From Myxococcales bacterium (GTDB taxonomy: Bacteria > Myxococcota > UBA727 > VGSZ01), in assembly GCA_023248635.1 (NCBI GenBank), contig JAHFED010000010.1:13275-77274 (forward strand): 64,000 nucleotides of DNA. The letters run 5' to 3'. Shown here piece after piece: positions 10,603-52,706 of this stretch. Within the stretch, counting starts at the first letter, position 1. Each line of letters starts with the position of its first letter. The notes under the pieces were generated by a model. The model searched no databases and was not told the origin of the DNA. It worked only from the letters and a program-made list of their open reading frames with translations. The position numbers were made by a program, and so were the translations under genes.

Positions 10603-10632
10603 CCGGCGGGCTGCTTTCGACCTCGGACCTCG

Positions 10633-10700
10633 AATTCATCGCCGCCAGGCGATGAACCTGTAGACAATTCACCGACACGCGAAGCCTGGTCGGTGGACTC
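10633..10700. repeat. Copy (inverted orientation) of the ~65-bp double-hairpin intergenic repeat also found at 16620..16749 and 52636..52706.
   Basis: The reverse complement reads ...caccgaccaggcttcgcgtgtcggtgaattgtctacaggttcatcgcctggcggcgatgaattc. Apart from a few substitutions in the first stem it is the same as the units in the lepA-lepB spacer. It carries two internal inverted repeats (CACCGAC/GTCGGTG and TTCATCGCC/GGCGATGAA). Confidence 0.8.
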
Positions 10701-14628: not shown

Positions 14629-16425
14629 ATGGCTTCCGAGCTCATCCGAAATTTCTCCATCATCGCCCACATCGACCACGGTAAGTCGACGCTCGCCGAC
14701 CGCATCCTCGAGGTCACGGGCTCCATCACCGCCCGCGAGATGCAGTCGCAATTCCTGGACAAGATGGACCTTGAGCGCGAGCGCGGCATCACCATCAAGG
14801 CCCAAGCGGTGCGCCTGTTTTACACGGCGAAGGATGGCAAGACCTACAACCTCAACCTCATCGACACCCCTGGCCACGTCGACTTCAACTACGAGGTGAG
14901 CCGCGCGCTCGGAGCATGCGAAGGCGCCCTCCTCGTCGTCGATGCGTCTCAAGGCGTTGAAGCCCAGACCCTGGCCAACGTCTACTTGGCTCTCGACGCC
15001 AACCTCGAGATCGTGCCGGTGCTCAACAAGATCGACCTGCCCTCGGCGGACCCCGAACGGGTGCGTCAGGAGATCGAGGACATCATCGGGCTCGACGCCA
15101 GCCAAGCCGTCTGCGCTTCGGGCAAAGCGGGCATCGGCATCGTCGAAATCCTCGAAGCCATCGTGCAGAAGGTGCCCCCACCCAAGGGCGACGTCGACGG
15201 CCCCTTGGCTTGTTTGATTTTTGACTCCTGGTTCGACTCCTACCGCGGCGTTGTCGTGCTCGTGCGCGTCTTCGAAGGCACGGTGAACCCCGGCATGAAG
15301 GTGCGCCTCATGCACAACGGCAAGGAGTTCGAGGTGCAGGAGCTCGGCGCCTTCACGCCCCACTCGATCAAGCTGCCGCAGCTCGTGGCCGGCGAAACCG
15401 GCTTCATCATCGCCAACATCAAAGACGTGCACGACACCAAGGTCGGCGACACGTTGACGTCGGTGGTGAACCCGCGCCCGGCGCCCCTGCCCGGGTTCAA
15501 GGAGATCCAACCCGTCGTCTACGCCGGCGTCTTTCCCATCGAGGCCGCCGACTACGAAAACCTCAAGGAGAGCCTGGCCAAGCTCAAGCTCAACGACTCG
15601 GCGCTCAAGTTCGAGCCGGAGACGTCGAAGGCGTTGGGCTTTGGTTTCCGGGTCGGTTTCCTCGGTCTGTTGCACATGGAGATCGTGCAGGAGCGCCTCG
15701 AGCGCGAGTTCAACCTCGAGCTCATCACCACCGCTCCGACCGTGGTCTACCAGGCCTACATGACCGACGGCAGCGTCGTCGAAGTCGACAATCCCTCGCG
15801 CCTGCCCGACCCCGCGCGCACCGACCACGTCGAAGAACCCATCATCATCGCCAGCATCCACACGCCCTCGGAGCACGTGGGCGCCATCATCAAGCTCTGT
15901 GAAGATCGACGCGGCACCCAGAAGGACCTCGCGTTCATCACCCAGACCCGCGTGCTCATCAAATACGAGCTGCCCCTGGCCGAGGTCGTCTTCGACTTCT
16001 TCGACAAGCTCAAGACCGTGAGCCGCGGCTACGCCTCCTTCGACTACGACCTCGCCGGCATGCGCGCAGACAAGCTCGTGAAGGTCGACGTCCTCGTCAA
16101 CGGCGAAAACGTCGACGCCCTTTCGATCATCGCCCACCGCGACCGGGCGCAGGCTCGTGGACGCGTGCTCTGCGAGAAGATGAAAGAGCTGATCCCGCAG
16201 CAGCAGTACCAGGTGGCGATCCAGGCCGCGATTGGCGGAAAGATCATCGCGCGCGAGACGTTGAGTGCTTTGCGCAAGGATGTGACGGCCAAGTGCTACG
16301 GCGGGGACATCTCGCGCAAGCGCAAGCTGCTCGAGCGGCAGAAGGAAGGGAAGAAGCGCATGCGACAGGTCGGCAGCGTCGACATCCCGCAGGAAGCCTT
16401 CCTCGCCGTGCTGAAAGTCGATTGA
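14629..16425 (+). CDS. lepA: Translation elongation factor 4 (LepA/EF4).
   Basis: N-terminus [20 protein letters not shown], GTPase motifs G1-G4 and the LepA-specific C-terminal domain; 598 aa. Confidence 0.97.
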
Positions 16426-16458: not shown

Positions 16459-16614
16459 TTCAAGACGCGCCAGCGTCTTGAACATCCAAGCTTCAAGACG
16501 CGCCAGCGTCTTGAACATCCAAGCTTCAAGACGCGCCAGCGTCTTGAACATCCAAGCTTCAAGACGCGCCAGCGTCTTGAACATCCAAGCTTCAAGACGC
16601 TGGCGCGTCTTCAG
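16459..16614. repeat. Tandem array (4 perfect copies and 1 variant) of a 33-bp unit. Each unit holds a perfect 10-bp-stem hairpin, TTCAAGACGC-gcca-GCGTCTTGAA.
   Basis: ttcaagacgcgccagcgtcttgaacatccaagc repeated at 16459, 16492, 16525 and 16558, with a variant at 16591 (loop tggc). The 9-bp spacers are identical, so this is not CRISPR. Confidence 0.9.
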
Positions 16615-16619
16615 TGCCG

Positions 16620-16749
16620 ATTCACCGACAGCGCTTCGCGTGTCGGTGAACTGTCAACAGGTTCATCGCCTGGCGGCGATGAATTCACCAACAGCGCTTC
16701 GCGTGTCGGTGAATTGTCTACAGGTTCATCGCCTGGCGGCGATGAATTG
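16620..16749. repeat. Two tandem copies of the ~65-bp double-hairpin repeat (family shared with 10633..10700 and 52636..52706).
   Basis: ATTCACCGACAgcgcttcgcgTGTCGGTGAATtgtctacaggTTCATCGCCtgGCGGCGATGAAtt occurs twice, with a/t polymorphisms. Conserved pseudo-peptides (ALRVSVNCLQVHRLAAMN) appear in spurious ORFs at all three loci. Confidence 0.85.
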
Positions 16750-16777
16750 GCCGCCCGGCCTGAGGGCAGAGAATTCC

Positions 16778-16811: not shown

Positions 16812-18134
16812 ATGAGCTGGGGAAATCGCTTGCGCCGCTTGCTGACCCCTGGTCACGCCGTCGGCTTCGTCGTCGTCGTCACGGCCCTCTATTTTGCCTG
16901 GGGGCGCGTGTTCCAGGAGGGAGGCACCGGCAGCAACGTCGTCCTTGGTCTGCTGCTCGCCGTCGCCGTCTTGTGGGTGGGCACCAACACCCTTGCTCCG
17001 GTCGTCGACGAAGCCCTCGCGTCGGGCGATAAGCGCGCGCTCCTCAAGAAGCAGCGGCTGGCCTTCGAAGGGGCTGTGCACCTCGAGAAAGCGACCAAGC
17101 GCGAGCGCAAGAACAAGAAGACGCCGCTGACCTCCGACGTCTTCGCCGAGCTCAACGCCGTGATCGCGGCCCTCTTTCAGGCCTCCGTCGACGGCAAGGA
17201 CATCGACGCCGTCGCCGAACGGGCCACGGCCATCACCAACCGGGCTTTTCCGCCGGTCAAAGAGGGTGTCTTTGCCCAGGCCCGCTCGTTGGGTGCCGCC
17301 TTCGCCGTCGCCATCGCCCTGCGCACCTTCGCCGTCGCACCCTTCCAGATTCCCTCGGGTTCGATGATCCCGACCCTGCTCATTGGCGACCACCTCTTTG
17401 TGTGGCGCGCGACCTATGGGCTGCAGATCCCGTCGAAGAATGGCCTCGGCATCTTTTCGTTCCTTGGCGCGGTGCTGCCCCAAAAGCCGATCTATTTCGC
17501 GCGGTGGTGCATTCCCGAACCCGGCGATGTCGTCGTCTTCGAGGCTCCCCCCTGGGTCTCGGCGAATGCCGGCGAGGATTGGATCAAGCGTGTGGTCGCG
17601 GGGCCCGGCCAACAGGTGCGCTTCGAAAACACGGTGTTGATCGTCGACGGCCGGCGCTACGAGCAGGTCTCCGCCGATGGAAAAAATGGGGTCGACGACG
17701 ACGGCGACCCCTTGGGCGAGCTCACCACCTACGACGACTTCCGCGGTGACACTGGCCCCTGGGTCAAGTCCCACGCTGGCCACAAGAAAGAGACGCTGCT
17801 GCGTCGCGACGGCACGCCGGTGGTGCACTCCATCTTCAACGACATGCCACCCCGCACCTCGCAGTGGCCCATCCCCGGCGCGGTGCCCACCTTGACCGGA
17901 CTGCGCTGCACCGACGAAGCCTGCACCGTCGCCGACGGCTTCGTCTTCGTCATGGGCGACAACCGCGACAACTCCTCCGACGGGCGCACGTGGGGCGCTG
18001 TGCCCATCGACAACATCAAGGGCAAAGCCATCTTCATCTGGGTGTCCGTCGACGGCAGCGAGAACTCGCTGAAGGTCGGACGCTTCACGCTCCCGCGCTT
18101 TCGCTGGGACCGCCTCGGCGACATCATTCGCTGA
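16812..18134 (+). CDS. lepB: Signal peptidase I (S26 family) with an extended N-terminal TM region and a large insertion.
   Basis: Box B IPSGSMIPTL (catalytic Ser) and box E GDNRDNSSDGR. Conserved synteny with lepA. Confidence 0.9.
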   Translation: MSWGNRLRRLLTPGHAVGFVVVVTALYFAWGRVFQEGGTGSNVVLGLLLAVAVLWVGTNTLAPVVDEALASGDKRALLKKQRLAFEGAVHLEKATKRERKNKKTPLTSDVFAELNAVIAALFQASVDGKDIDAVAERATAITNRAFPPVKEGVFAQARSLGAAFAVAIALRTFAVAPFQIPSGSMIPTLLIGDHLFVWRATYGLQIPSKNGLGIFSFLGAVLPQKPIYFARWCIPEPGDVVVFEAPPWVSANAGEDWIKRVVAGPGQQVRFENTVLIVDGRRYEQVSADGKNGVDDDGDPLGELTTYDDFRGDTGPWVKSHAGHKKETLLRRDGTPVVHSIFNDMPPRTSQWPIPGAVPTLTGLRCTDEACTVADGFVFVMGDNRDNSSDGRTWGAVPIDNIKGKAIFIWVSVDGSENSLKVGRFTLPRFRWDRLGDIIR

Positions 18135-22175: not shown

Positions 22176-22293
22176 AGGGGGCCCCCTCGTCCCGCGATTC
22201 TGGGGACGAAGAGGCTAATGCACGCTCGACGCCAAGAGTGCTCCGGCAGTCGAAGGCCACGCGGCGGCGGTGATGCCTGCGGATGCGCAACCG

Positions 22294-22314
22294 TTGCGCA
22301 TGCTGCTCGCGCGG
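22294..22314. promoter_or_regulatory. Perfect 9-bp inverted repeat ATGCGCAAC-cg-GTTGCGCAT in the ~300-bp leader upstream of the NRPS gene; candidate operator for a dimeric regulator.
   Basis: gatgcgcaaccgttgcgcatgc is a seen palindrome. It lies within the region between 22176 and the likely NRPS start at 22474. Confidence 0.35.
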
Positions 22315-22473
22315 ATTGAGAAAGCGGGCGCTGCGGTGCACAGGGCGATGGCGACGGGCTCAAGGCGAGCGACACGTTGGGCGGGCCCCGTCCGCTTCAG
22401 CAGGGCCCCGCTCAGCGCACAGCGCTTCCGGCTTTGCGCCGTACCAGCGACGCGATGTGATAGCCAAGGCTGG

Positions 22474-25400
22474 ATGTCGTCGTCGTCGGTGCCGCCAAAG
22501 TCCTTTCCGCTCACTTCCGTCGAGCGGCGCTTTTGGATGCTCCACAACCTCCATCCCCATTCCCCCGTGGCCAACATCGGGCGTGTGGTCGAGCTGCGGG
22601 GCGAGCTCTATGTCGACGACCTCGCGCGGGCTTTTGCCATCGTTGCCCAAAACCCGGTGCTCCGAATGAGGGTGCGCGAGGAGCGCGGGGAACCACGGGG
22701 CGTGCTCGGCGATCCCCCCCGCCTGACCATCGACGCCGACGTCGCCGACGCCGACGCCGTCGCCCGCGCTGCCGACGAAATCGTCAAGGCTCCCTACGAT
22801 CTGGCGCGCGGGCCGTTGTGTCGCGCGCGCCTGCTGCGCACCGCCGACGACGAGCTCCATGTGTTGGTGCTCGGCGCCCACCATTTGATCCTCGATGGCT
22901 GGGGGCTGTCGCGCTCGCTGCCGCGGGCCATCGCGCGGGCCATGCGCGGCGAGAACATGAGCTTCGGCGACGAAGATGCTCTCGACGACGACACCTGGAT
23001 CGAGGCCCGCTTCGAGCGCGCGCCCGACGACCCCCCGGCAGACGCCCGCGCCATCGACGCCGCCTGGTGGAGCTCGGCACTGAAAGATGCCCAGCCCCTC
23101 ACCTTGCCTCTGGTGCGCCCGCCTCCGCCCCGGTCCACCGGCCGCGCCTGGGACGTCGAGGTCGCGGTTCCGCCGGGGATCTATGCCAAGGCCAAGGCGC
23201 TGGCGACGTCGATCGGTGCTCGCACCGTGCACGTGTTTCTGGCGGCCTTCGTCACCGAGCTCTCGCGCGCCGGTCGCATCCACGACGTGCTCTTGGGGAC
23301 CACGAGCGCGGCGCGGCCGGGCAGCGACCCCGACAACCACGAGATGGGCTGCTTCGTTCGCACCAAGGCCCTGCGCGTCGCCTTCGACGATCACGCGCCT
23401 TTCGTCGACGTCGTGCGGGCCTGCCAGACCGCCGTGCGCCAAAGCCTGGATCACCCCGCGTTCGACGCCGAAGAGCTGCAGCAGATCCAGGCGCCCGCCA
23501 TCGGCGCCCTGTTCAACTTCATCCCCTTCTCGGCCTTCGACGGCGTGTTGCCCGATCTCACGGTCAAGGCGGGGCGCATCATCGCCGGGGGCACCGCGTT
23601 TCCGATCTCCATGACCGTCGACGCCCACGGCGACCCCCGCCTCGTCGTCGAAGTCGACGCCGACCTCTTCGACGAGGGCTTCGCGCTGCGTTTTGCCGAG
23701 CGCATCAACGCCGTGCTGGCCGCGGGGGTCGCAAACCCGGCCCTGCCCTTCACGCGCCTGAGCCGACTCGGCCCCGTCGACGACGACGCGTGCGCCCAGA
23801 ACGCTCCCACCGCCCCTGAGATTGCCCCCGTGGTCGGTGGTGAGGTCACCGCCCTGCTCGAGCGTGATCTCGCCGGTGCTGAGCCGGCGCTGGTGCTCGT
23901 GCGGGATCCCCTCGATCCCGCCAGCGACGTCGCCGTCTCGCGGAAGGCACTGCTCGAGCGGGCCCAGGCCATCGCGGCGTCACTCGTCAAAGACCACGTC
24001 GACGGCGACGACGTTGCTTTCGTGGGGGTGCAGTGCCTCGATCCCCTGCGCACCGTCGAAGCGATCTTGGGCGTGCTCTTCGCCGGCTTTGCCTATGTCC
24101 CCATCGATCCGCGCGCGCCCCCCCTGCGTGCCGCCGCCATCGTCGAACAAGCGAAGGTGAGCACCGTCCTCGACGACGAAGCCGCCACGATCCGCGCCGC
24201 CATCCCCATCACGGCGGGTCGCAAGAGGCGGACGCCGCGGCCCTCCGATCCCGCCTATGCCATCTTCACCTCAGGCAGCACCGGCGCTCCCAAGGGCGTC
24301 GTCATCTCTCACGGCGCCCTGGTGTCGCAGCTGCAGGCCCGCGAGGGCCTCGGCTTTCCCCACGTCAAACGCTCCTGCTTGCTCGCTCCCTTCTTCTTCG
24401 ATGGCTCCATCGAGACGCTGTTTTGGACCCTGACCACCGGCGGCACCCTGCACCTGCTGGGAGAAGACGCGCGCCGCGATCCCCTCGCCATCCGGCGCAC
24501 CCTGGCCCGACGCCGCATCACCTACACCTCGGCGGTGCCCGCGCTGTGGGGCGCGATGTTGGATGCAGCGACGTCGACGGAGGAGTCCCTCGATGCCCTG
24601 GGCTTCGTCATCGTCGGCGGCGAAAAGCTCACGCCCCAGCTCATCGAAAAGCACAACACGCACACCTCGGCGCGGCTGGTGAACGAATACGGACCAACCG
24701 AAACGACGGTGTTTTCCACGGCGTGGACCGCGCCTTCGCCGGGCGAGCCCACACCCGAGCGCGTGCCCATCGGCCGCTCGGCCCCCCATGTGCGCTGCGC
24801 CGTCGTCGACGACAACCTGGAGCCCGTGCCCTGTCTCGAGGCCGGCGAGCTCGTCGTCAGCGGTGCGGGCTTGGCCGATGGGTACTTGAATGCGCCGGAG
24901 CAGACCGCGGCCGCCTTCGTCGTCCACCAAGGCGTGCGTCTGTACAAGACGGGCGATCTGGTGCGCCTGTGGCCTGACGGCGACCTCGAGTGGCTGGCGC
25001 GCAAAGACGAGCAGGTGAAGCTGCGCGGCGTTCGCGTCGAGCCAGGCGAAGTCGAAGCCGCCCTGCTGGCCGAGGGCTGCGACGAAGCCGCCGTCCTCGT
25101 CGACGGACAACATTTGTTGGCCTGGGTCTCACCAGCCTCCTGCGACGAAGCAGAGCTGATTGCGGCCCTCTTGCGGCGGCTGCCCGAGGCCATGGTCCCC
25201 GCGCGCATCATGGCCCTGGCGGTGTTGCCAAAGACCGCCAACGACAAAATCGACAAGCGCAACCTGCCAAAGATCGCCGTCGACGACGTCGTCACGCCCG
25301 CTGCCACCGCTCTCGAGCGCGCCATCGCTGCCATCTGGGAAGACGTGCTCGATCAAAGCCCGATCTCGGTGACCAAGAGCTTCTTTGCCTACGGTGGACA

Positions 25401-26370
25401 CTCCCTGAAGGCAGCCATCGTGGTGCGTCGTCTGAGCGATCACCTCGGCAAAGAGGTGCCGCTCTCGGCCCTGATGTTTGCCCGCACCGTGCGGGAGCTG
25501 GCCCGCAGCCTCGAGCAGCAGGCCCACAGCGGGTCGTCGTCGGCGTCGTCGCTGCTGCTCCCGTTGAGCGCTCGGGCCCAGAGCGCTCCTCGGGTGGTGT
25601 TCCTGCCGGGCATTGGGGGCCACGTCTTCACCTTCGCCGGCATCGCCGATCGCATGACCAACGTCGCCGCTGGCCTGCGCTCTTACGGGAGCGAGCCGGG
25701 GGAGGAGCCCCTGGCCTCGGTCGAAGAGCTGGCCAGCAAGAACCTCGATGAGCTCGACAAGGCTGGGGTCGCCGACGACGTCGTCTTCGCCGGCTACTCT
25801 TTCGGCGGCCTGGTCGCCTACGAGATGGCGTTGCAGCGGACTGCGCTGGGACGTCCTCCTCGTCATCTGGTCATTTTCGACACCTTGGCGCCGGGCTATC
25901 CAAAGAAGCTGCCCTTCTTCCAACGCGCCCGCCTGCACGCCGAGAGCTTGGTGCGCGCGGATTGGGAAGGACGGCGGGCCTACCTTCAGGGCCGCGTCGA
26001 CAGCGTGAAAGAGAAGCTCAACTTCAAGCTGCAGCGCGCCGAGGCCTTCAAGGACGCCTTCGCCCTCGATGACGAAGAGCTGCGGGCGCTAGGCCCTGTG
26101 CAGCGCGCCCAGCTCGAGAAGCTGGCGGGTACCTCGACCTTGGCCCACCACCGCTACTGGCCGCGGGCGTCGACGTCGGTGCCCATGACCCTTTTTGCGG
26201 CAGAGTCGGGTTTTGACTGGGCAGCCACCGTCATGGACGATCCCCTGCTCGGGTGGAGCGCCTGGGGCACGGGGTCGCTGCGGCGCGTGGTGCTCAAAGG
26301 CGACCACCTGCGCCTCTTCGTCGACGAGAACCTGCTCACGGCCGCACGCGGACTCGACGCCATCGCCTGA
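22474..26370 (+). CDS. Non-ribosomal peptide synthetase, single module C-A-T-TE.
   Basis: Condensation-domain motif HHLILDGWG. Adenylation cores A3 (AIFTSGSTGAPKGV), A7 (YKTGDL), A8 (ARKDEQVKLRGVRVEPGEVE) and A10 (KTANDKIDKR). PCP motif FFAYGGHSLKA. Thioesterase motif GYSFGG. The start is set where the C domain begins (MSSSSVPPKSFPLTSVERRFWML); the upstream in-frame ATG at 22270 is possible. Confidence 0.9.
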   Translation: MSSSSVPPKSFPLTSVERRFWMLHNLHPHSPVANIGRVVELRGELYVDDLARAFAIVAQNPVLRMRVREERGEPRGVLGDPPRLTIDADVADADAVARAADEIVKAPYDLARGPLCRARLLRTADDELHVLVLGAHHLILDGWGLSRSLPRAIARAMRGENMSFGDEDALDDDTWIEARFERAPDDPPADARAIDAAWWSSALKDAQPLTLPLVRPPPPRSTGRAWDVEVAVPPGIYAKAKALATSIGARTVHVFLAAFVTELSRAGRIHDVLLGTTSAARPGSDPDNHEMGCFVRTKALRVAFDDHAPFVDVVRACQTAVRQSLDHPAFDAEELQQIQAPAIGALFNFIPFSAFDGVLPDLTVKAGRIIAGGTAFPISMTVDAHGDPRLVVEVDADLFDEGFALRFAERINAVLAAGVANPALPFTRLSRLGPVDDDACAQNAPTAPEIAPVVGGEVTALLERDLAGAEPALVLVRDPLDPASDVAVSRKALLERAQAIAASLVKDHVDGDDVAFVGVQCLDPLRTVEAILGVLFAGFAYVPIDPRAPPLRAAAIVEQAKVSTVLDDEAATIRAAIPITAGRKRRTPRPSDPAYAIFTSGSTGAPKGVVISHGALVSQLQAREGLGFPHVKRSCLLAPFFFDGSIETLFWTLTTGGTLHLLGEDARRDPLAIRRTLARRRITYTSAVPALWGAMLDAATSTEESLDALGFVIVGGEKLTPQLIEKHNTHTSARLVNEYGPTETTVFSTAWTAPSPGEPTPERVPIGRSAPHVRCAVVDDNLEPVPCLEAGELVVSGAGLADGYLNAPEQTAAAFVVHQGVRLYKTGDLVRLWPDGDLEWLARKDEQVKLRGVRVEPGEVEAALLAEGCDEAAVLVDGQHLLAWVSPASCDEAELIAALLRRLPEAMVPARIMALAVLPKTANDKIDKRNLPKIAVDDVVTPAATALERAIAAIWEDVLDQSPISVTKSFFAYGGHSLKAAIVVRRLSDHLGKEVPLSALMFARTVRELARSLEQQAHSGSSSASSLLLPLSARAQSAPRVVFLPGIGGHVFTFAGIADRMTNVAAGLRSYGSEPGEEPLASVEELASKNLDELDKAGVADDVVFAGYSFGGLVAYEMALQRTALGRPPRHLVIFDTLAPGYPKKLPFFQRARLHAESLVRADWEGRRAYLQGRVDSVKEKLNFKLQRAEAFKDAFALDDEELRALGPVQRAQLEKLAGTSTLAHHRYWPRASTSVPMTLFAAESGFDWAATVMDDPLLGWSAWGTGSLRRVVLKGDHLRLFVDENLLTAARGLDAIA

Positions 26371-26389
26371 GGGCATTGGGTGCGGCGCG

Positions 26390-26628
26390 CTACTCGCCCT
26401 CGCCTTCGCCCTCGGCGGCGTCACAGGCGGCGTTGGCGTCGCCTTCGCAGGCTTCGTGCTCGGCCTCGCCCTCTGGGAAGTCCTCGCACTCGTCGCGGAT
26501 CTTCGCCACGCAGGTGGTGCGCGCGTCGCCCTCGCAGCCGGCGCAGTTCACGTTTCTTCTTCGACCGGCGCCGCAGGGCAGGCCGCCAGCACGAGGAGAC
26601 CGAACAGGGCCAGCACGCCGCGCACCAT
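26390..26628 (-). pseudogene. Small Cys-rich acidic lipoprotein gene with an apparent +1 frameshift between the signal peptide and the mature part (or a sequencing error in a gaagaagaaa run).
   Basis: ATG 26628 gives MVRGVLALFGLLVLAAC|PAAPVEEET* (lipobox LAAC, stop after 26 codons). The adjacent frame continues RRNVNCAGCEGDARTTCVAKIRDECEDFPEGEAEHEACEGDANAACDAAEGEGEGE* with excellent GC3 bias; it has 8 Cys in 55 aa. It sits 11 bp downstream of the kinase-FGE gene stop. Confidence 0.4.
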
Positions 26629-26639
26629 GAGCAACTCGA

Positions 26640-29600
26640 TCAGCGCGGGTTGGCGCAACAGCGGTAACCAAGGGTCGACGTCGTCGTCTTCGCCGACACC
26701 AGGTGGCGCGCCGAGCAACGCGACGCGAAATCAGGGTGATCGGCGGAGCCGCCCTTGGCGATTCTCTGGCCGCCGTGGGAGTCGGCGACCCATTCCTCGG
26801 CGTTGCCCGACATCATGTAGAGCTTGAAGCCAGACTTGCACTTCTTGAAATCGACGGGAGCAGCCAGGGGACGGGGTTTGCCGTCGCTGTCTTCGGTGTT
26901 GCAAGTGTCTGCGTCGTAGGTGTTGCCATAGGGGAAGCGCGACGACGACGGCCCCTTGCAGGCTCGCTCCCATTCTTGCTCGGTGCACAAGCGCCGACCC
27001 GCGCGCTCGCAGGCGTTCTTGGCGGCGGTCCACGAGACACCGGTCGTGGGCAGGGTGCTCTTGCCGTTGGGCGCCTCGTAGTGCTCGATGCAGAAGGCTT
27101 TGACCTCGACCGACGTCGCCTCGGCTTCTCCAAAATTGCGCATGGGATCGGACTGCGCGGAGCCGAAGGTGAAGGCGCCGGCTTCGATCTTGACGGTGCC
27201 GCCTGGGCATTCTCCCGACGACAAAGCGAGCTCGGGGGCCTTGGGATCCGGTGTCGGGCCTTTGGGATCCACTTTGGGATCGACTTTGGGATCGACCCTG
27301 GGATCGACCTTGGGATCGACTCTGGGATCGGGCGCCTTGACCAAGGCAGCCTCGCGTTCGCGCCGTTGCATTTCTTCGAGGGCGCGGGCTGCGGCGTCGC
27401 GCGTCTCTTTGGCGTCGTCGACGCGCGGCTGCACGGCCACCGTCCCCGCGTCGACCACAACGGCGACGGCGGGAACCGGGGCGGGCGGCTGCGGCACCAC
27501 CTCCCCCGGTTGCAGGGTCACGCCGGCAACGTCTTCGGCGTCTTCGCCGGATTGCTTCCACAGGTGGCGAAGAGCGAGCAGCAGCAGCAGCACAGCGAAG
27601 CCGACGCCGGCCGCGATCAGCACGGGGTTGGTGCCCTGCTTGGGCCGACGCGGTGGCGTGACCGGACGCAGGGGGACAAAAGGCTGCACCGCCATGACGT
27701 CGTCGTCGTCGCCGCCGCGTGCCCTGGGGCGTCGGGCGCTGGTCAAGGTCTCCTGCACGTCGTCGTCGTCGTTGCTGCGCCTGGGCAGTGCCGGCGGCAG
27801 CTCCTCGGCTTGTCCAGAGCCCGTGCCAGCGGTGCGGGTGAGCGCTTCGCGCAGGGCGACGTCGTCGACGTGGTCGGCCCGCGGATGGAGCTTGAGCGCC
27901 GTCAAGGCATCGTGAATGGCCAGGCCATCGTCGGAGCTCAGGGGCGGTGGCGGCATCGGCAGCGACGCGGGTGGTGGCTCTTCGGAGGTCAAACCGAGCA
28001 CCTCGGCGGCTCGGGGCCCCGCCCCCGCCAGCTCGGCGGTCTCTTCGAGGGAGTCCTCGCTCGACATCGCGGGGGCGTGGGGGCGCGCGACCGCTCGCGG
28101 TGGCGTCGGGAGCCCGGGGTTGTCGCTGGGGGCCGCCGCCGGAGCGCGCGGAGGGTTCGGGTTGGGGCTCAGGCTCCCCGCCGCGATCTGTCGGTTCTCG
28201 ACGGTGTCGTCGTCCCCAGGCAAGGGGAAATGCGAGCGCTCGAGGGGATCGCCTTCGTCGTCGGGCAGCGGCGGCGGGATCAGGTTGTCGTCGACCTCCT
28301 TGGAGTAGAGGGCTTCGAGCAGGGCGTCGCCGCCGGGGGGCCGGGCACCGGAATAGACCAGCCCGGGGCGCTCGCCCTGCATCGGCCGGCCGCCGGGGCT
28401 GGTGTCGACGTCGTCTTCGCCAGAGGCACGGGTGGTTGGATCGTCGGCGGTGTCGTCGGGGTTGAGGCCGCTGACCGACATCAAGCGCCGCGCCGCCAAC
28501 TCCATGTCGGTCTCGGCAGGCGCGGGCGGGCTCGGACGCTTGGTCTGCATCACCGCGCTCTCGAGCAGCATGACCTGGCTCTGCCCAATCTCGAGCAGCG
28601 AGGGATCCTCTTCCTCCGACGACGCCGACAACGGCGGTGCCAGGGCTTGCGCGTTGGTCTGCTGGGGCGGTGGCCCGGGATGGGGAAATGCAGCTGCGAC
28701 GACGACGACCCCTGCTTCTCTGCCCTCGAGTCGCGCCCCGGCCACCGGCTCCACCAGCAGGGCGCCTGGTGGCAGGGGAGAGGACGCCTTCGCGGCCGGC
28801 GTGGGCTTGCCGAGGCTTGGTGGCTCCTTGGTCGCGGCGGGGGGCGGCAGCGGCTGTCCGCCAAGGGCAGCGAGGGCTCCTTCGACCTCCTTGGCCAGGT
28901 CGCCGGCTTTGGTGAAGCGCCCATCGGGGTGCTCGGCGACGGCGCGTCGAATCAAGCCGTCGAGGCGGGTGGGGAGCTGCTCGAGGGCCGCGGTGAAGGC
29001 GCGGGAGAAGTGTCCTTCGAAAACGATGCCCGTCAGCATCTCGGCGAAGATCACCCCCAGCGAGTAGACGTCGACGCGGCCGTCGATGGTCTGTGCTTCC
29101 ACGCGCAACTCGGGGGCGATGTAGGGAAAGGCCTTGCTCCTGCTCTTGGCGATGCCCAGGAAGGGCTTGAGCGGCAGGCCTTTGACGAGGCTGAAGTCCG
29201 TGACCTTGAGCAGGTCAGGCAGGACGACGACGTTTTCTGGCTTGAGGTCGCCGTGCCAGGTCTGTTTGTGGGCGTAGTCGAGAGCAGCACCCAGCTGCTG
29301 GAAGATCGGCGCGAGCTCTTCGGGCGAGAAAGCCTGGCCCTTGTCGTGCCGGAGCCGAATGATCTTCCGCAGCGTGAGCCCCTCGAGGAGCTTCATGGTG
29401 AAGAAGCGGCGGTTGGGCTGCAGGTGCTGCCCTTCGTCGTAGATGCGGACGATGTTGGGATGCTGCAGCTTGCGCGCGGATTTAATGGCCTTGGCGAACT
29501 GCTTTTGCTCTTCGTCGGTCTGCAGCAGGTTGGGCGAGATGCCCTTGAGGGCAATGTCGACGTCGATCTCGGTGTCGCGGGCGCGGTAGACGGCGCCGAC

Positions 29601-29804
29601 CCCGCCCTGGCCGATGAGGTCGAGGACGCGATAGCGGCCCGCGATCAGCTCTCCCGGCGAAAAGATCAGCGCCTGCTGCTGCCCCGTCGTCGGCCGCTTC
29701 TGCGGTCCGATGTTCTTGCCGGCCTTGTCGACGAGCTCTTGCCCGCAGACCGTGCACTTCTGTGCTTCATCGGAGTTGTAGGAGCCGCAGCGGAAGCAAA
29801 GCAT
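26640..29804 (-). CDS. Receptor-like Ser/Thr (pseudo)kinase: Zn-ribbon, then a Hanks kinase with altered catalytic motifs, a Pro-rich linker, one TM helix, a (VDPK)n repeat and an FGE-sulfatase (SUMF1-like) domain.
   Basis: MLCFRCGSYNSDEAQKCTVCG ribbon. Kinase motifs GQGGVGAVYRA and IALKGI, but HGDLKPENV (HRD changed to HGD) and VTDFSLV (DFG changed to DFS). TM helix NPVLIAAGVGFAVLLLLLALRHLW. DPRVDPKVDPRVDPKVDPKVDPKG encoded by 12-bp DNA tandem repeats. C-terminal FGE motifs (GNAEEWV, LGYRCCANPR). Confidence 0.8.
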   Translation of the reverse strand: MLCFRCGSYNSDEAQKCTVCGQELVDKAGKNIGPQKRPTTGQQQALIFSPGELIAGRYRVLDLIGQGGVGAVYRARDTEIDVDIALKGISPNLLQTDEEQKQFAKAIKSARKLQHPNIVRIYDEGQHLQPNRRFFTMKLLEGLTLRKIIRLRHDKGQAFSPEELAPIFQQLGAALDYAHKQTWHGDLKPENVVVLPDLLKVTDFSLVKGLPLKPFLGIAKSRSKAFPYIAPELRVEAQTIDGRVDVYSLGVIFAEMLTGIVFEGHFSRAFTAALEQLPTRLDGLIRRAVAEHPDGRFTKAGDLAKEVEGALAALGGQPLPPPAATKEPPSLGKPTPAAKASSPLPPGALLVEPVAGARLEGREAGVVVVAAAFPHPGPPPQQTNAQALAPPLSASSEEEDPSLLEIGQSQVMLLESAVMQTKRPSPPAPAETDMELAARRLMSVSGLNPDDTADDPTTRASGEDDVDTSPGGRPMQGERPGLVYSGARPPGGDALLEALYSKEVDDNLIPPPLPDDEGDPLERSHFPLPGDDDTVENRQIAAGSLSPNPNPPRAPAAAPSDNPGLPTPPRAVARPHAPAMSSEDSLEETAELAGAGPRAAEVLGLTSEEPPPASLPMPPPPLSSDDGLAIHDALTALKLHPRADHVDDVALREALTRTAGTGSGQAEELPPALPRRSNDDDDVQETLTSARRPRARGGDDDDVMAVQPFVPLRPVTPPRRPKQGTNPVLIAAGVGFAVLLLLLALRHLWKQSGEDAEDVAGVTLQPGEVVPQPPAPVPAVAVVVDAGTVAVQPRVDDAKETRDAAARALEEMQRREREAALVKAPDPRVDPKVDPRVDPKVDPKVDPKGPTPDPKAPELALSSGECPGGTVKIEAGAFTFGSAQSDPMRNFGEAEATSVEVKAFCIEHYEAPNGKSTLPTTGVSWTAAKNACERAGRRLCTEQEWERACKGPSSSRFPYGNTYDADTCNTEDSDGKPRPLAAPVDFKKCKSGFKLYMMSGNAEEWVADSHGGQRIAKGGSADHPDFASRCSARHLVSAKTTTSTLGYRCCANPR
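27262..27330. repeat. Six tandem 12-bp repeats (ttgggatcgacy) inside the kinase-FGE gene, encoding the (VDPK/R)n periplasmic linker.
   Basis: tttgggatccactttgggatcgactttgggatcgaccctgggatcgaccttgggatcgactctgggatcg. Confidence 0.8.
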
Positions 29805-30075
29805 TGACGTCGACGACCCGCGTTGGAGGTGGGGCTGCCATAGCTCAACGATCTGCGATGACAAACGGCCTGTGGCGCACGCCGCGCGCTTTCTTTCGCA
29901 TCAGGATGCGCTTCGCGCAGCTCCTCCGGCCCGGCCTCGGCCCAGATGGGCAGCCCCGGATGGGTTGACAGAAGGTGAGGTCTGTAAACTCGCACGCAGC
30001 GCGCGGACGTCGTGAGCCTTCACGTTCTGCTGTCCAGACGCTGGCGCGTCGCGAAACGTCAGCTGCGGGCCACCG

Positions 30076-31950
30076 TCATTCGGCGGGGCCTTCAGCCAGC
30101 TTCTTGGCGCGCGCATACATGGGGCTGAACTGCTTTCGGTAGACGGCGTCGATGGAGATCAACTTCTCGAAGCAGTCGCGGGCGGTCACCCAGTCTTTGC
30201 TCTGCATCGAGAGCATGGCGAGGCGAATGAGCGCAGGCGGCGCCGTCGGATCGGCAGCGATGGCCTCTTCGAGCGCCTTGCGGGCCTCGACGGGATGGTT
30301 TTCGGCGATGGCGCGGTCGGCGCGTCCGACGGCGGCGTCTCGAGCGAGGGGATCGACCGGCGTGTCGCCGGCCAGAGCCTTTTGCAAGGCGCTGCGATCC
30401 ACTGGGTCCACCGGCGGCGGCACGGGCGCGGCCGCGGGGGCACCGATGACAGCGCCCGAGGTGGCGGGCTGGGCGAGCAGTTTGCCCTGCACGACGAGCA
30501 TGGCGACAAAGACGAAGCCGCCGAGCAACAACAGACCGCCGACGACGACGACGATGGCGGCGACGCTGATGCGGTTGGGAGGTCGTTCGACCTCGACGAT
30601 CTCGGGCTTGCCGGGTCCCGGATTCGTGGTTTGGCGCACCGCCTCGAGTGTCACCACGCGCGCGGCTTTGGGTGCTCCAGCAGGGATCGGAGGCGGCGCG
30701 GCATCGCTCACAGGCGGAGGCTGCAACGGCGGCGGCGGCGGCGCGAGGGGCTGCCTCAGGGCGGGCGCTGGCTGGAGCGGAAGGGCAGCGGGGTTTGACG
30801 AAGCAGGAGCGGCGAAGGCCGGCGCCGGTGGGGCGATCATCAGCGAGGAGGGCGATCCGAAGCGGGTCATCACCGCTTCGGTCGGGGGCGAGATCGACAT
30901 CGACGCCGCCGGCAGGGGCACGGTGTCGTTGCGCATCATGGGGGGGAGGGGGGCAAAGGCCGCCGGCAGCTTGTCGAGGGTCGGCGGCGGCGCCCCCCCG
31001 TCGGCGCCGAGCCCCGGGCGCGCGCGCTGCGGCAGATCCACCACGACGCCATCGGCGAAGGGAGCCAGCGCGTTGGCGAAGCTGGCGGCGTCGGGCCAGC
31101 GCTCCTCTTTGTTCTTGGCCATGCCCCGGCGCAAGACAGACTCGAAGCCGGGAGGCATGAAAACACCCGGGCGCTCCGTCGACGGCGCCTCCTCGGAAAA
31201 GACCTTGAGCAAGGTGTCTCTGACGCTGGTGCCGCGAAAAGGCGAGCGGCCGAGCAGCATGTGCCACAGCACCACGGCGCCCGAGTAGATGTCGCTTCTG
31301 GCGTCGAGGGGATCGCCCCGCGCCTGCTCCGGCGACATGTATTCGGGCGTCCCAAAGATGGTGCCAGGGATGGTCAGGGCCTGCTGGTCGGCGGCGTCGT
31401 TGGTGGTGATCTTGGCGATGCCGAAGTCGACGACCTTCACCATGTCGGGTCGCCCGATCTTCTGGGCCAGCATCACGTTTTGCGGTTTGAGATCGCGGTG
31501 CAGCACGCCGCCGACGTGGGCTGCGTCGAGGGCTTTGAAGAGCTGGATGCCGATGCGCGCGACGCGGGCCGCGGGCATGGCCCCACACGCGCGCAGCTCG
31601 TCGGCCAACCCGCGGCCAGCGACCAGCTCCATGGCGATGTAGAAAGTGCCGTCGCCGTCTTCGCCGAAGTCGTCGACGCTGACGCAGTTTTCGTGTTCCA
31701 GCCGCGAGGCGGCCATGGCTTCGCGGCGGAACCGCGCCACGAGCTTGAGGTCCTTGGAGAGGTGCCCCGCCAGCAGCTTGATCGCGACGCGTTTCTCGGT
31801 GGTGAGATGGGCGGCCTCGTACACCGAACCCATGCCGCCGGTGCCCAGCACGCGCACGATGCGGTAGCGGCCGGCCAGCACCGTGCCGATGCGGTCATCG
31901 ACCTTGTCGCCCTTTGGGGCCGGCGGCGCTTGGCTCACGTCGACGACCAT
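30076..31950 (-). CDS. Ser/Thr protein kinase with a single TM helix and a C-terminal TPR-like periplasmic domain.
   Basis: LGTGGMGSVYEA, HRDLKPQNVML, DFGIAK and GTPEYMSPE. A Pro/Ala-rich linker, then TM VAAIVVVVGGLLLLGGFVFVAMLVV, then a C-terminal helical repeat region. Confidence 0.9.
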   Translation of the reverse strand: MVVDVSQAPPAPKGDKVDDRIGTVLAGRYRIVRVLGTGGMGSVYEAAHLTTEKRVAIKLLAGHLSKDLKLVARFRREAMAASRLEHENCVSVDDFGEDGDGTFYIAMELVAGRGLADELRACGAMPAARVARIGIQLFKALDAAHVGGVLHRDLKPQNVMLAQKIGRPDMVKVVDFGIAKITTNDAADQQALTIPGTIFGTPEYMSPEQARGDPLDARSDIYSGAVVLWHMLLGRSPFRGTSVRDTLLKVFSEEAPSTERPGVFMPPGFESVLRRGMAKNKEERWPDAASFANALAPFADGVVVDLPQRARPGLGADGGAPPPTLDKLPAAFAPLPPMMRNDTVPLPAASMSISPPTEAVMTRFGSPSSLMIAPPAPAFAAPASSNPAALPLQPAPALRQPLAPPPPPLQPPPVSDAAPPPIPAGAPKAARVVTLEAVRQTTNPGPGKPEIVEVERPPNRISVAAIVVVVGGLLLLGGFVFVAMLVVQGKLLAQPATSGAVIGAPAAAPVPPPVDPVDRSALQKALAGDTPVDPLARDAAVGRADRAIAENHPVEARKALEEAIAADPTAPPALIRLAMLSMQSKDWVTARDCFEKLISIDAVYRKQFSPMYARAKKLAEGPAE

Positions 31951-32032
31951 AGACCGGGTCGGCCCCTCGCAGCGAATCAGCGGCCTGATGCCTCAGCCCT
32001 CCAAGGCCGGCACGGCTCTTCCAGGTTGAGCG

Positions 32033-32125
32033 GTTGGCACGGCGCAAAGTGCTTCCTGCTTTGCGCCGTTGGCACGGCTCAAAGTGCTTCCTGTTTTGCG
32101 CCGTTGGCGCCGCGCAAACCCTGCA
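32033..32125. promoter_or_regulatory. Roughly 2.5 tandem 35-bp direct repeats, each containing a 9-bp-stem palindrome (GGCGCAAAG-n9-CTTTGCGCC), in the divergent intergenic region between the STK-TPR gene and the PEGA gene.
   Basis: gttggcacggcgcaaagtgcttcctgctttgcgcc / gttggcacggctcaaagtgcttcctgttttgcgcc / gttggcgccgcgcaaaccctg. A related single copy lies at 10575..10602. Confidence 0.6.
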
Positions 32126-32151
32126 GCCGCTGCAACGCGTTCCAGCGGCAG

Positions 32152-33421
32152 GATGCTCTATGCTGCGCGCGTGACCGACGACGACGTCTCCGATGAAGGC
32201 ACTCCCCTGCCCCACAACCCGGCGCTGCGGGAGGTGGTGCCCGCCCATCCCGGCGACCGCACGGCCCTGATCGACCTTGAAGCCGTCGAAGCCAAGAGGG
32301 CCGCCCGCCGGGTCCAAGAGAGGGAGGCCGCCGGCGCCGTCGACGACGATCCGGAGCTGACGCCGCCGCCCGAGGGAGTAGAAGAGCGCGACCCCGACGT
32401 CACCGGCACCCTGGCGCGCGGCAGCACCAAGAGGAAGAAGGCCGCTGCCGGAGCCCGGCTGGTGCGGGACGAGCAGTCGCGCCCCGAACCCACCGACGGT
32501 GGCGAAGCCACCAACCGTGAGGAGCCCCGGGCCGATCCGCGCAGCCGCACCGACATGAAGAGCCGCGTCGACGTCACCCGCGAGGCCACCCGCGCTCGCG
32601 ACGGCACCCAGCAGCTGCGCCGCCGCAAACGCCGGCCCCTGTCGGCGACGGCGGCGGCTTCCATCGTCGTCATCGCAATTGTGTTGTTGATCGTGGCGGT
32701 CTTCGTCGCCGTGCGCGCCACCGCCGTGCTGACGGTGACGACGGTGCCGCATGGTGCGTTGGTCAACCTCGACGGCGAACCCGTCGGCACGAGCCCTCTG
32801 CAAAAGCGCGTGCGCACGGGTTCTCACGTCATCGAGCTCGCCCTCGACGGCTACGAGCCCTTCCGTGATGTCTTCGACGTCCCCTCCACCGGTTTGCCCT
32901 TCCTGCAGCCGATGAAGGCGCTGCCGCCGCCGCCGCCGCCGCCGCCGTCTCCCGCGGAAATAGCGATGGATCTTGCTGGGCAGGCCAAGCGCTTGTTCGA
33001 GAGTGGCGACCTCGATGGCGCTGTCTCCAAGGTGGACGAGATCGAAAAGCTCGTCGTTGCCCACAAGGATTCTGAGGGGATCCGCAAGCTCATCAAGGAA
33101 GCTGCGGCCAAGCGGGCCGTGGAGCGGCGCAAAGACGCAGCGTCGGCGACGCGGGAGGCCCAGCTGCAGCGATCCCGTCAGCTCACCGAAGAAGGGAGGC
33201 AGCTCTACGATCAGGGCAAGCTCGGTCCGTCGCGCACAGCGCTCTATGAAGCGTTGAAGCTCGACAGCAAGAACCCCGATCCCCACCGCACGCTGGCCAA
33301 GATTTTCAACCGCGAAAACGAGGTCGACAAGGTGCGCTACCACCTCGAGCGCTTCCTCGCGCTCGGCGGCAACGACGCCGATTTCAAGGTGCGCGAGTGG
33401 CTGAAGTCGCACCCGAAGTAG
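32152..33421 (+). CDS. PEGA-domain membrane protein with a C-terminal TPR-like region.
   Basis: A charged N-terminal region, then TM IVVIAIVLLIVAVFVAV. PEGA domain (LTVTTVPHGALVNLDGEPVGTSPLQKRVRTGSHVIELALDGYEPF), a poly-Pro stretch and helical repeats. Start taken at MLYAARV (32152); the ORF-track start 32069 is likely upstream read-through. Confidence 0.7.
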
Positions 33422-47789: not shown

Positions 47790-47866
47790 TGGTCGGAGCG
47801 ACAGGATTTGAACCTGCGACCCCTAGACCCCCAGTCTAGTGCGCTACCAAACTGCGCCACGCTCCG
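47790..47866 (-). tRNA. tRNA-Pro (anticodon GGG), CCA encoded.
   Basis: Cloverleaf folded by hand: acceptor CGGAGCG/CGCTCCG with C1:G72 (the Pro hallmark), D-stem GCGC/GCGC, anticodon stem CTAGA/TCTAG, loop CTGGGGG (U33, GGG, G37), T-loop TTCAAAT, discriminator A, CCA. Confidence 0.85.
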
Positions 47867-52639: not shown

Positions 52640-52706
52640 ATTCACGGACAGCGCTTCGCGTGTCGGTGAATTGTCTACCGGTCCATCGCCTCGCAGTCAT
52701 GAATTT
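52636..52706. repeat. Copy of the ~65-bp double-hairpin intergenic repeat, followed by an AT-rich (about 30% GC) 40-bp tract.
   Basis: atgaattcacggacagcgcttcgcgtgtcggtgaattgtctaccggtccatcgcctcgcagtcatgaatt, then ctagtttgagcgtatgtaattatattatgaattggtcgaaatg. Confidence 0.8.

Follow-up and report, generated by a model that had tools for sequence, protein, structure and literature searches.

A kinase joined to a domain of the formylglycine-generating enzyme (FGE) type is an architecture that is common in Myxococcota and is already annotated there, named examples being WP_164018673.1 and WP_267855706.1 (Pyxidicoccus), and the family is unstudied. In databases its members are called ‘bifunctional serine/threonine-protein kinase/formylglycine-generating enzyme family protein’ or ‘SUMF1/EgtB/PvdO family nonheme iron enzyme’, and the ‘Proteo1’ family of the bSTK atlas preprint (10.1101/2025.01.12.632604) is noted there to include an architecture with FGE-sulfatase.

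The PknB/StkP PASTA kinases resemble the protein described here in having an N-in kinase, a single transmembrane (TM) helix and an extracytoplasmic sensor, and they gave its best PDB sequence matches (E 3e-27 to 1e-22), but they are RD kinases with an αC Glu, a DFG motif, an activation-loop Thr and a PASTA ectodomain. Mycobacterium tuberculosis PknI (PDB 5M06-5M09, 5XKA) gave the best superposition by rmsd (2.9-3.4 Å, TMt 0.82-0.86), although the identity is 26-28% and PknI has neither a zinc ribbon nor an FGE ectodomain; it reportedly adopts a pseudokinase-like inactive conformation. HER3 (ErbB3) and EFR offer a functional analogy, as single-pass receptors with a nucleotide-binding kinase-like domain and allosteric signalling, but they belong to another kingdom and the homology is limited to the kinase fold. 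In HER3 the catalytic base and/or the αC Glu are dispensable for signalling, which is allosteric. The same has been described for EFR, a plant non-RD receptor kinase (PMC11259431). The literature on bacterial signalling and conflict proteins interprets FGE/C-type-lectin (CLec) domains as modules that bind a ligand, and two such groups resemble our protein: the cyanobacterial STK-CLec DGR variable proteins, in which an N-terminal kinase is likewise followed by a C-terminal FGE-type CLec ligand binder, and the sensor domains called ‘FGS’ in bacterial conflict systems (PMC7159879, PMC7517822, PMC10907252). In cyanobacteria, DGRs most often target proteins that combine a kinase with a CLec/FGE domain.

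The gene and the layout of its product

The gene studied here lies in a 64-kb window, that is, the whole stretch of 64,000 nucleotides that was analysed, from the MAG-type genome of an uncultured Myxococcota bacterium. In the ORF list it is one intact ORF of 1054 aa ending in a stop codon at 26640-26642 (Table 1). Starting from the TTG at 29864 gives the longest ORF; the ATG at 29804 was preferred as the start because the resulting N-terminus, MLCFRCGS..., agrees with those of the homologues (consensus MLCxRCGSY). From the N-terminus the product consists of a zinc ribbon, a Hanks-type kinase, a Pro-rich linker, a TM helix, a tandem repeat and an FGE-fold domain, as a preliminary description of this DNA had read it, and this architecture was confirmed, as were the motifs HGD (184-186), DFS (203-205), GNAEEW and LGYRCC. 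The gene is an intact, ordinary member of its kinase + FGE family, sharing with the named members the Pfam architecture, the zinc ribbon, an H(G/S)x catalytic loop and a C-terminal ectodomain with ten Cys; it differs from those of cultured organisms in its kinase domain, to which theirs are only 40-45% identical, and its closest full-length relative (67% identical) is metagenomic. No conserved operon or gene neighbourhood was found among orthologous loci, and the adjoining canonical kinase gene (30076-31950) is not syntenic in them.

Table 1. Features of the gene and its product, as positions in the 64-kb window
Feature	Residues	Position	Strand	Basis
Complete CDS		26640..29804	-	ORF list; full-length alignment at 100% coverage with P0001, P0002, P0008, P0017
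N-terminal Cys4 zinc ribbon (C3, C6, C17, C20)	1-24	29733..29804	-	Pfam, Cys conservation, AF2
Hanks-type non-RD kinase-like domain	51-312	28869..29654	-	Pfam, NCBIfam, PDB alignments, motif census, AF2, Foldseek
Cytoplasmic Pro-rich linker, probably disordered	313-726	27627..28868	-	Composition, block conservation
Single TM helix, PVLIAAGVGFAVLLLLLAL, N-in/C-out	727-745	27570..27626	-	Kyte-Doolittle scan
Extracytoplasmic juxtamembrane spacer	746-824	27333..27569	-	Post-TM segments of 30 homologues
Lys/Pro-rich tandem repeat, xDP(K/R) x6 + tail	825-861	27222..27332	-	Tandem Repeats Finder, DNA read
Shortened FGE-fold (C-type-lectin-like) ectodomain	862-1054	26643..27221	-	Pfam, PDB alignment, AF2, Foldseek, column census

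The zinc ribbon gave a weak match to Zn_Ribbon_1 (E 1e-3, under the cut-off), but its four Cys were all present in each of the 107 homologue rows, out of 121, whose N-terminus is complete, the other 14 rows being gapped, and AF2 modelled it with pLDDT 83-86. This ribbon forms the N-terminus of the protein and no hydrophobic signal sequence was found there; in a Kyte-Doolittle scan of the whole protein the TM helix was the sole segment reaching 1.8. The helix is flanked by RRPK on its N-terminal side and by the acidic EDAEDV on its C-terminal side, charges which favour an N-in orientation, and invariant Cys are confined to the ectodomain, which has ten while the kinase domain and linker have none, consistent with an oxidising compartment beyond the helix. 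The single helix, the flanking charges and the distribution of Cys therefore agree with the cytoplasmic kinase and extracytoplasmic FGE-like domain that had been proposed, and the predicted layout is that of a bitopic N-in/C-out receptor kinase. The linker (17% Pro over the 411 aa of residues 316-726) contains four short islands conserved among 59 homologues when scored per block, at 401-420, 501-520 (IPPPLP), 621-640 (IHDALTAL) and 701-720.

A non-RD kinase domain that keeps its catalytic triad

Pkinase (PF00069) matched the kinase domain over residues 58-260 at E 4e-32, its 112 bits exceeding the cut-off of 31.7, and the AF2 model of the domain (pLDDT 91) found PknA, PknI and PknB in Foldseek. 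NCBIfam PknB_PASTA (NF033483) aligned with the kinase part alone and, at 155 bits, fell short of its cut-off of 450, so the protein does not qualify as a PASTA equivalog. The G-loop (GxGxxG; G65-Q-G-G-V-G70), the β3 (VAIK) Lys (K87) and the APE motif (230-232) are present. The catalytic loop reads HGDLKPEN, with Asp186 and Asn191 kept and the HRD Arg replaced by Gly185, and the DFG motif reads D203-F-S205, with the Mg-binding Asp kept and Gly replaced by Ser. HGD and DFS had been taken as degenerate catalytic motifs, but both catalytic Asp residues are retained, and these motifs therefore mark a non-RD kinase and need not mean a dead one. A pseudokinase, as usually defined, lacks at least one of the VAIK Lys, the HRD Asp and the DFG Asp; as K87, D186 and D203 are all in place the domain is, judged from its sequence, no pseudokinase by that definition and may be active, and non-RD kinases can be constitutively active. 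Two features point the other way. The αC Glu position is occupied by Ala106 (FqrEa of StkP aligned with FakAi in a PDB sequence alignment), and the activation segment, which is highly conserved and is ordered and helical in the AF2 model (pLDDT 94-97), contains no Thr and so no phospho-acceptor Thr.

Loss of the catalytic Asp across the family

Residues were compared across a sample of 194 related kinase domains, with changes counted on a crude neighbour-joining tree. K87 was kept in 193 domains, N191 in 186, D203 in 174 and D186 in 107, while the HRD Arg was present in 3 and the αC Glu in 39, that position being most often Gln (51), then Glu (39), Ala (31) and others. The catalytic Asp was thus lost in 87 of the 194 (45%), the tree requiring no fewer than 34 changes of state at this site compared to 1 for K87 and 3 for D203, and its substitution rate across the family was about the average for the kinase domain. 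A change of this Asp to Asn needs just one nucleotide substitution. An independent sample of 76 sequences seeded with the ectodomain gave HRD in 2, HGD in 22, HGN in 19, HGA in 9, HGG in 5 and other triplets in the rest, and many relatives are pseudokinases by definition (HGN, HGA, HGG; GLA). The kinase domain is more conserved than the ectodomain, at 70-86% identity in 20-residue blocks. The description of this kinase as possibly weakened therefore gains support, through Ala106 and the high lability of the catalytic Asp in the family beside a nearly invariant ATP-binding Lys, although the argument first given for it, from HGD and DFS, does not.

All four of K87, D186, D203 and N191 are kept in the query and in 41 of the 42 relatives closest to it. 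In the query's subclade one Asp change was observed against 3.4 expected (P = 0.15), a number compatible both with constraint and with its absence. A few family members (P0196, P0241) are canonical HRD/DFG kinases that carry the same ectodomain and zinc ribbon.

A proposed receptor with a nucleotide-binding switch or an active kinase

We favour, at a probability of roughly 0.5, a reading of the protein as a bitopic inner-membrane receptor in which the main role of the kinase-like domain is that of a switch or scaffold that binds nucleotide. The ectodomain would sense a ligand, probably a molecule of the envelope or periplasm, and binding would change the oligomeric state or conformation of the protein, a change that would be relayed to the kinase-like domain. 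The conserved job of that domain would be nucleotide-dependent switching and the recruitment of partners, which could bind through conserved surfaces of the kinase, the zinc ribbon and the linker motifs, and phosphotransfer may be weak or dispensable, by analogy with HER3 and the plant non-RD receptor kinases.

A conventional, active non-RD receptor Ser/Thr kinase, in which ligand would drive dimerisation and phosphorylation of substrates as in PknB, is a credible reading to which we give somewhat less weight than an even chance. It is favoured by the strength of the Pkinase match, by K87, D186, N191, D203, the G-loop and APE being held in the query and nearly all of its closest relatives, and by the canonical motifs of P0196 and P0241; the Ala in place of the αC Glu, the activation segment lacking an acceptor Thr, the repeated loss of the catalytic Asp at a rate near the domain average and the PknI entries (reportedly pseudokinase-like) being the best matches by rmsd all count against it.

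The FGE-like ectodomain

The FGE-sulfatase Pfam profile matched residues 915-1050 at E 8e-21, with 75 bits where 23.3 is the cut-off and an alignment limited to profile positions 88-254, and the AF2 model of the ectodomain (pLDDT 93) matched CalU17, FGE, pFGE, ToxD, PvdO and TvpA in Foldseek (TMq 0.71-0.78), human FGE at E 7e-14 with TMq 0.71-0.76. The same ectodomain also occurs three times in tandem in stand-alone proteins, which, together with the rigid-looking Lys/Pro spacer of variable length ahead of the ectodomain and weak NCBIfam and PDB sequence matches to GldK/PorK and GldJ, could suggest a structural envelope tether or assembly factor comparable to the FGE-like GldJ/GldK/PorK lipoproteins of the T9SS ring, without ligand-dependent signalling. 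The FGE-like domain would then form or bind a structure in the periplasm, to which the cytoplasmic part would give an anchor. We consider this improbable, as the NCBIfam scores for GldK (33.6 bits, cut-off 350) and GldJ (21.3 bits, cut-off 458) fall far short, no T9SS or other machinery genes were conserved beside the gene, and a strongly conserved nucleotide-binding kinase fold points to a regulatory role.

With human FGE (SUMF1) and pFGE (SUMF2) the ectodomain shares the fold, the GNAxEW motif and both structural disulfide positions, C218/C365 and C235/C346 of FGE aligning with C932/C1049 and C949/C1030, which are all Cys. It differs from human FGE in that a TM helix links it to a kinase, in six extra conserved Cys and in being some 66 residues shorter, residues 60/61 of the domain bridging positions 50 to 117 of the FGE chain, so that the part of the FGE N-terminal subdomain between the first β-strands and the VSW helix is missing. 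It differs also at the copper-binding catalytic Cys pair, since in a PDB sequence alignment Cys336 is replaced by Asp1022 and Cys341 by Ala1027, and in the family consensus for this region (GGAADRPDxASRC) neither position is Cys; pFGE, the non-catalytic paralogue of human FGE, reportedly lacks the pair as well. As both copper-binding Cys are replaced, neither formylglycine synthesis nor a copper site is expected, and the view that the domain is not a sulfatase maturase was upheld by this check of the Cys pair while the alternative of a redox or copper-binding module fell with it. That the protein really is both a kinase and a formylglycine-generating enzyme, and matures periplasmic sulfatases, as the FGE-sulfatase Pfam match and the database names imply, is hence hardly credible given Asp1022 and Ala1027, their counterparts in the consensus and the missing subdomain residues.

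The most variable stretch of the ectodomain in a column census, residues 1034-1044, lies directly before the conserved LG(F/Y)RCC, the place at which DGR C-type-lectin proteins have their variable region. That this is a DGR variable protein, its C-terminal loop diversified by mutagenic retrohoming, is very improbable in spite of this position and of an architecture that matches the cyanobacterial STK-CLec variable proteins (PMC7517822). Neither seed-extension nor blastn at word size 7 found a template copy of the 3' end of the gene in the 64-kb window, and no stretch of 26600-26900 beyond 21 nt in length recurs elsewhere in it; among orthologues the region can be aligned and shows moderate conservation, not hypervariability. 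From the STK-CLec proteins and the ‘FGS’ domains the query differs, further, in that the window contains no reverse transcriptase and in that its domain is extracytoplasmic, beyond a TM helix, and conserved rather than hypermutated.

Implications for the family

The names ‘bifunctional...’ and ‘nonheme iron enzyme’ thus imply an enzymology which neither the query sequence nor the consensus of its relatives supports. With no catalytic Cys in the ectodomain, and a freely drifting Asp beside a fixed Lys in the kinase, the family may be recast as a likely bacterial class of receptor pseudokinases, for which the prediction is nucleotide binding with no need of phosphotransfer. To extend the receptor reading of this one protein to the whole of the Myxococcota, as HER3-like receptor pseudokinases whose lectin-fold (FGE-type) ectodomain senses a molecule outside the cell or in the envelope, possibly one that comes from prey or kin, and which signal without phosphotransfer, is a tentative step that we rate below an even chance. 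A nucleotide-bound, conformationally locked kinase might then, with the zinc ribbon and linker motifs, recruit or allosterically activate signalling proteins, and, if true, this would be a bacterial counterpart to the non-catalytic receptor-kinase signalling of animals and plants. For this gene alone the result is modest.

The spacer and its tandem repeat

The segment that follows the TM helix contains the motif VVDAG. It also has a charged helix (EEMQRREREAA) that is found again in orthologues. The repeat beyond it had been described as (VDPK)6 encoded by perfect 12-bp repeats, but residues 825-848 read PDPR-VDPK-VDPR-VDPK-VDPK-VDPK, and Tandem Repeats Finder reported 5.9 copies of period 12 at 27260-27330 with 89% matches. 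The units vary at the Lys/Arg codon (AGA/AAG/AGG/AAA) and at the Val codon, and just some 26 nt of the DNA (units 4-5) are perfectly periodic. The suggestion that the repeat would be a site of length variation was supported, as the spacer varies in both length and unit across orthologues, where VVEPK, VDPPK, PKPDV x11, VPEK or VVTPDPK are found in place of xDP(K/R). The Lys/Pro repeat is, on these alignments, a hypervariable, fast-evolving spacer ahead of the ectodomain, and in an 89%-identical relative it already differs in unit and in number.

Gene structure, domains and topology

A single intact open reading frame was found on the minus strand of the interval under study, its longest form starting at TTG 29864. 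Translation from ATG 29804 gives a protein beginning MLCFRCGSYN, an N-terminus common to the homologues (consensus MLCxRCGSY), and so the coordinates first proposed for the gene, 26640-29804 (1054 amino acids plus stop), are right. The combination of Pkinase and FGE-sulfatase (formylglycine-generating enzyme) domains has already been annotated by NCBI and JGI and is mentioned for the Proteo1 family in the bacterial STK (bSTK) atlas preprint (10.1101/2025.01.12.632604). The gene belongs to a known, uncharacterised kinase-FGE kind; experimental work on any family member was not found in the literature searched. The nearest full-length relative shows only 67% identity, and the named relatives are all Myxococcota, mostly freshwater or soil MAGs, with Corallococcus (WP_120606749.1) and Pyxidicoccus (WP_267855706.1) as distant cultured relatives.

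Despite a weak Pfam match (E 1e-3), the predicted N-terminal zinc ribbon is genuine, since C3, C6, C17 and C20 are present in all homologues with a complete N-terminus. The protein has 14 cysteines, four in the zinc ribbon, ten after the transmembrane (TM) helix and none elsewhere. The TM helix is preceded by RRPK and followed by an acidic stretch, and there is no signal peptide, so that the kinase is predicted to be cytoplasmic and the C-terminal domain to lie beyond the membrane.

Domains of the kinase-FGE protein (residues) and features of the window (nucleotides)
Feature	Position	Strand	Remarks
Pkinase domain	residues 58-260		Pfam, E 4e-32
TM helix	residues 727-745		sole TM candidate, single hydrophobic helix
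FGE-sulfatase domain	residues 915-1050		Pfam, E 8e-21
Single-module NRPS (C-A-T-TE)	22270-26370	+	downstream of the kinase-FGE gene, convergent
Canonical RD Ser/Thr kinase	30076-31950	-	271-bp gap upstream of the kinase-FGE gene; HRDLKPQN, DFG, alphaC Glu
PEGA-domain and TPR protein	32069-33421	+	PPPPPPPP run; divergent from both kinases
Dispersed element, ~70 nt	16616-16689, 16679-16752, 52636-52709	+	three of four copies, intergenic
Dispersed element, ~70 nt	10624-10700	inverted	fourth copy, intergenic
33-nt tandem repeat	16459-16623		~five copies, three identical, palindrome in each
27-nt periodic repeat	7255-7429		six units at 70-85% identity, within ORF 6891-8822 (-)
tRNA gene	47793-47866	-	only Rfam match in the window

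The ectodomain

Alignment to wild-type human FGE (1Y1E) showed that Cys336 and Cys341 are replaced by Asp1022 and Ala1027, and hence that the copper-binding catalytic pair is missing. The domain can act neither as an FGE nor as a copper site, which bears out the preliminary description in doubting a sulfatase maturase and goes against its suggestion of a copper-binding module. The structural disulfide cysteines of FGE (C218, C235, C346 and C365) align to C932, C949, C1030 and C1049, and GNAWEW of the human enzyme matches GNAEEW here. The ectodomain lacks about 66 residues that in FGE link the first strands to the VSW helix, which is why the Pfam match is limited to profile positions 88-254. 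Across the family the ectodomain has ten invariant cysteines, the former active site reads GGAADRPDxASRC in consensus, and variability peaks at residues 1034-1044, directly before LG(F/Y)RCC. The AlphaFold model of the ectodomain (pLDDT 93) was matched by Foldseek to CalU17, FGE, pFGE, ToxD, PvdO, TvpA and EgtB (TMq 0.7-0.78), and the domain is a 'mini-FGE' with the C-type-lectin superfold, rich in disulfides and non-catalytic. Membership of EgtB/OvsA, PvdO or GldK was rejected, as scores were far under the cut-offs, and a DinB domain is absent from the protein. In bacterial conflict systems, lectin domains of the FGE type are taken to be ligand sensors (PMC7159879, PMC10907252).

A search of representative proteins gave 294 clusters of ectodomain relatives at E<=1e-30, and in the best 150 of these, which were examined, the domain nearly always forms the very C-terminal end of a protein ~600-2000 amino acids long. 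Nine relatives were sampled, six having an N-terminal kinase and two having three tandem copies of the domain. When the word index was searched with just the ectodomain, the only matches were fragments of this family on short contigs. Six proteins from outside the window (P0147, P0157, P0159, P0162, P0207 and P0254) are stand-alone proteins of 515-756 amino acids; the two that were Pfam-scanned, P0147 and P0159, carry three tandem shortened FGE-like ectodomains and no kinase.

The kinase domain and its family

The preliminary description took HGD and DFS to be degenerate catalytic motifs, a reading that does not hold, as the catalytic loop HGDLKPEN retains the catalytic Asp186 and Asn191, and DFS retains the Mg-binding Asp203; these motifs mark the kinase as non-RD rather than as inactive. 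Its G-loop, Lys87 and APE are likewise in place. A substitution that had been overlooked is that of the alphaC Glu, partner of the beta3 Lys, by Ala106 (FqrEa against FakAi in an alignment to StkP). The confident AlphaFold model of residues 1-340 (pLDDT 91.4) predicts that the activation segment is ordered and includes helices at 206-209 and 212-222. It superposes best on the PknI structures of M. tuberculosis (rmsd 2.9-3.4 A), PknI being reportedly in a pseudokinase-like inactive conformation.

The family was sampled through the 120 best full-length homologues and an independent set for which the ectodomain was the sole query against 1.84 billion representative proteins, giving 194 alignable kinase domains, a total which includes the query and, as outgroup, the neighbouring canonical kinase. 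The beta3 Lys is retained in 193/194, the catalytic-loop Asn in 186 and the DFG Asp in 174, the catalytic Asp in 107 (replaced by N in 44, A in 24, G in nine, S in six, and by others), the alphaC Glu in 39 and the HRD Arg in three. On a neighbour-joining tree the catalytic position changed between Asp and non-Asp at least 34 times, compared to once for the Lys and three times for the DFG Asp; with a total tree length of 30, these 34 changes are about the average rate of the kinase domain. That domain is the best-conserved part of the protein, above the ectodomain, at 70-86% identity per 20-residue block (59 homologues), and LPDLLKVTDFxLxxxLP(L/R)KPF and the remainder of the activation segment are near-invariant and contain no Thr. 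Fixed nucleotide-binding residues, a drifting catalytic base and conserved surfaces are together the pattern that would be expected of a conserved function other than phosphotransfer.

Such drift with an invariant Lys may be a new observation at the level of the family; it rests on a crude tree. It recalls HER3 and the non-catalytic plant receptor kinases (PMC11259431). A comparison with the seven families that the bSTK atlas lists as pseudokinases gave no clear match: in each of them the VAIK Lys is substituted in at least a third of members, whereas here it is kept in 193/194. In the subclade of the query the catalytic Asp is kept in 41/42, with one change seen against 3.4 expected; this deficit is not significant (P = 0.15), and so the query protein itself may or may not be an active enzyme.

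Spacer and cytoplasmic linker

The TM helix is separated from the ectodomain by a VVDAG motif, a charged helix (EEMQRREREAA) which recurs in orthologues, and a Lys/Pro repeat reading PDPR-VDPK-VDPR-VDPK-VDPK-VDPK. The underlying 12-bp DNA repeats had been called perfect; we found a period of 12 and 5.9 copies with 89% matches, the units varying at synonymous and Lys/Arg codon positions. Orthologues carry other units, namely VVEPK x5-6 in P0001, (V/A)DPPK in P0002, PKPDV x11 in P0016, VPEK-type units in P0015 and VVTPDPK x5 in P0121 (an ectodomain fragment), and so the spacer is hypervariable in both its unit and its length, the comparison being one between species (best full-length relative 67%, best ectodomain fragment, P0121, 89% identical). 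The cytoplasmic linker (residues 316-726, 17% Pro) is weakly conserved outside four islands at 401-420, 501-520 (IPPPLP), 621-640 (IHDALTAL) and 701-720, which are plausible candidate docking motifs.

Proposed mechanism and alternatives

The best-supported reading, to which we give a probability of about 0.5, is that of a bitopic receptor. The ectodomain would bind a periplasmic or envelope ligand while held off the membrane by the charged helix and Lys/Pro spacer, and the signal would cross via the single TM helix, probably as the receptor changes its oligomeric state. In the cytoplasmic kinase-like domain the residues that bind nucleotide are conserved; the family pattern suggests that its catalysis may be weak or dispensable, and output would then run via conserved surfaces, the zinc ribbon and linker motifs.

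The main rival, that the protein would be an ordinary active non-RD receptor kinase, is compatible with the intact catalytic triad of the query, and we consider it credible, if less likely than the first reading. A purely structural role as a tether is possible but unsupported, and a bifunctional kinase/FGE enzyme is essentially excluded by an ectodomain that cannot be an FGE. STK-CLec fusions are known targets of diversity-generating retroelements in cyanobacteria (PMC7517822); such a variable protein is essentially excluded here, as no template repeat of the 3' end of the gene was found in the whole window by seed extension or blastn (word size 7), all matches being low-complexity ones of GTCGTC type and <=21 nt.

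A role in anti-phage defence was also rejected, since the PADLOC matches (PD-T4-6, mad6 and MkoA) are confined to the generic kinase domain, with the canonical kinase next door giving stronger ones, and NCBIfam scores for MADS6, PglW and LanL were far under the cut-offs; these matches are generic kinase-domain similarity.

Genomic neighbourhood and other elements

Neighbourhoods were compared for the homologues P0001, P0016 and P0010 and the orthologous loci L001 and L004. The adjacent canonical kinase, which carries periplasmic TPR repeats besides a TM helix, is not syntenic at the orthologous loci compared. The only recurrent neighbour is the convergent NRPS, in the three closest genomes; at the two closest orthologous loci it occupies positions 13224-17081 of L007, beside the orthologue, and 6619-9006 of L001, near the orthologue. 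Neither it nor the canonical kinase is present at the P0016 or P0010/L004 loci. The NRPS may recur simply through synteny or because it is functionally linked, and with only this gene recurring and the adjacent kinase not syntenic, no conserved operon or functional partner could be inferred. Scanning 26200-32200 for promoters and terminators yielded nothing of use.

The window has a G+C content of ~68%. Its dispersed ~70-nt element contains two hairpins, TTCACCGACAGCGCTTCGCGTGTCGGTGAA and TTCATCGCCTGGCGGCGATGAA, its copy pairs are 82-92% identical (mean column identity 83%), and it matches no Rfam family; in appearance it resembles a REP or MITE. Directly upstream of it, between ORF 14629-16425 and a signal-peptidase gene (16812-18134), lies the 33-nt tandem repeat TTCAAGACGCGCCAGCGTCTTGAACATCCAAGC. 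The 27-nt periodicity within ORF 6891-8822 suggests that this frame may encode a protein with a 9-residue repeat.
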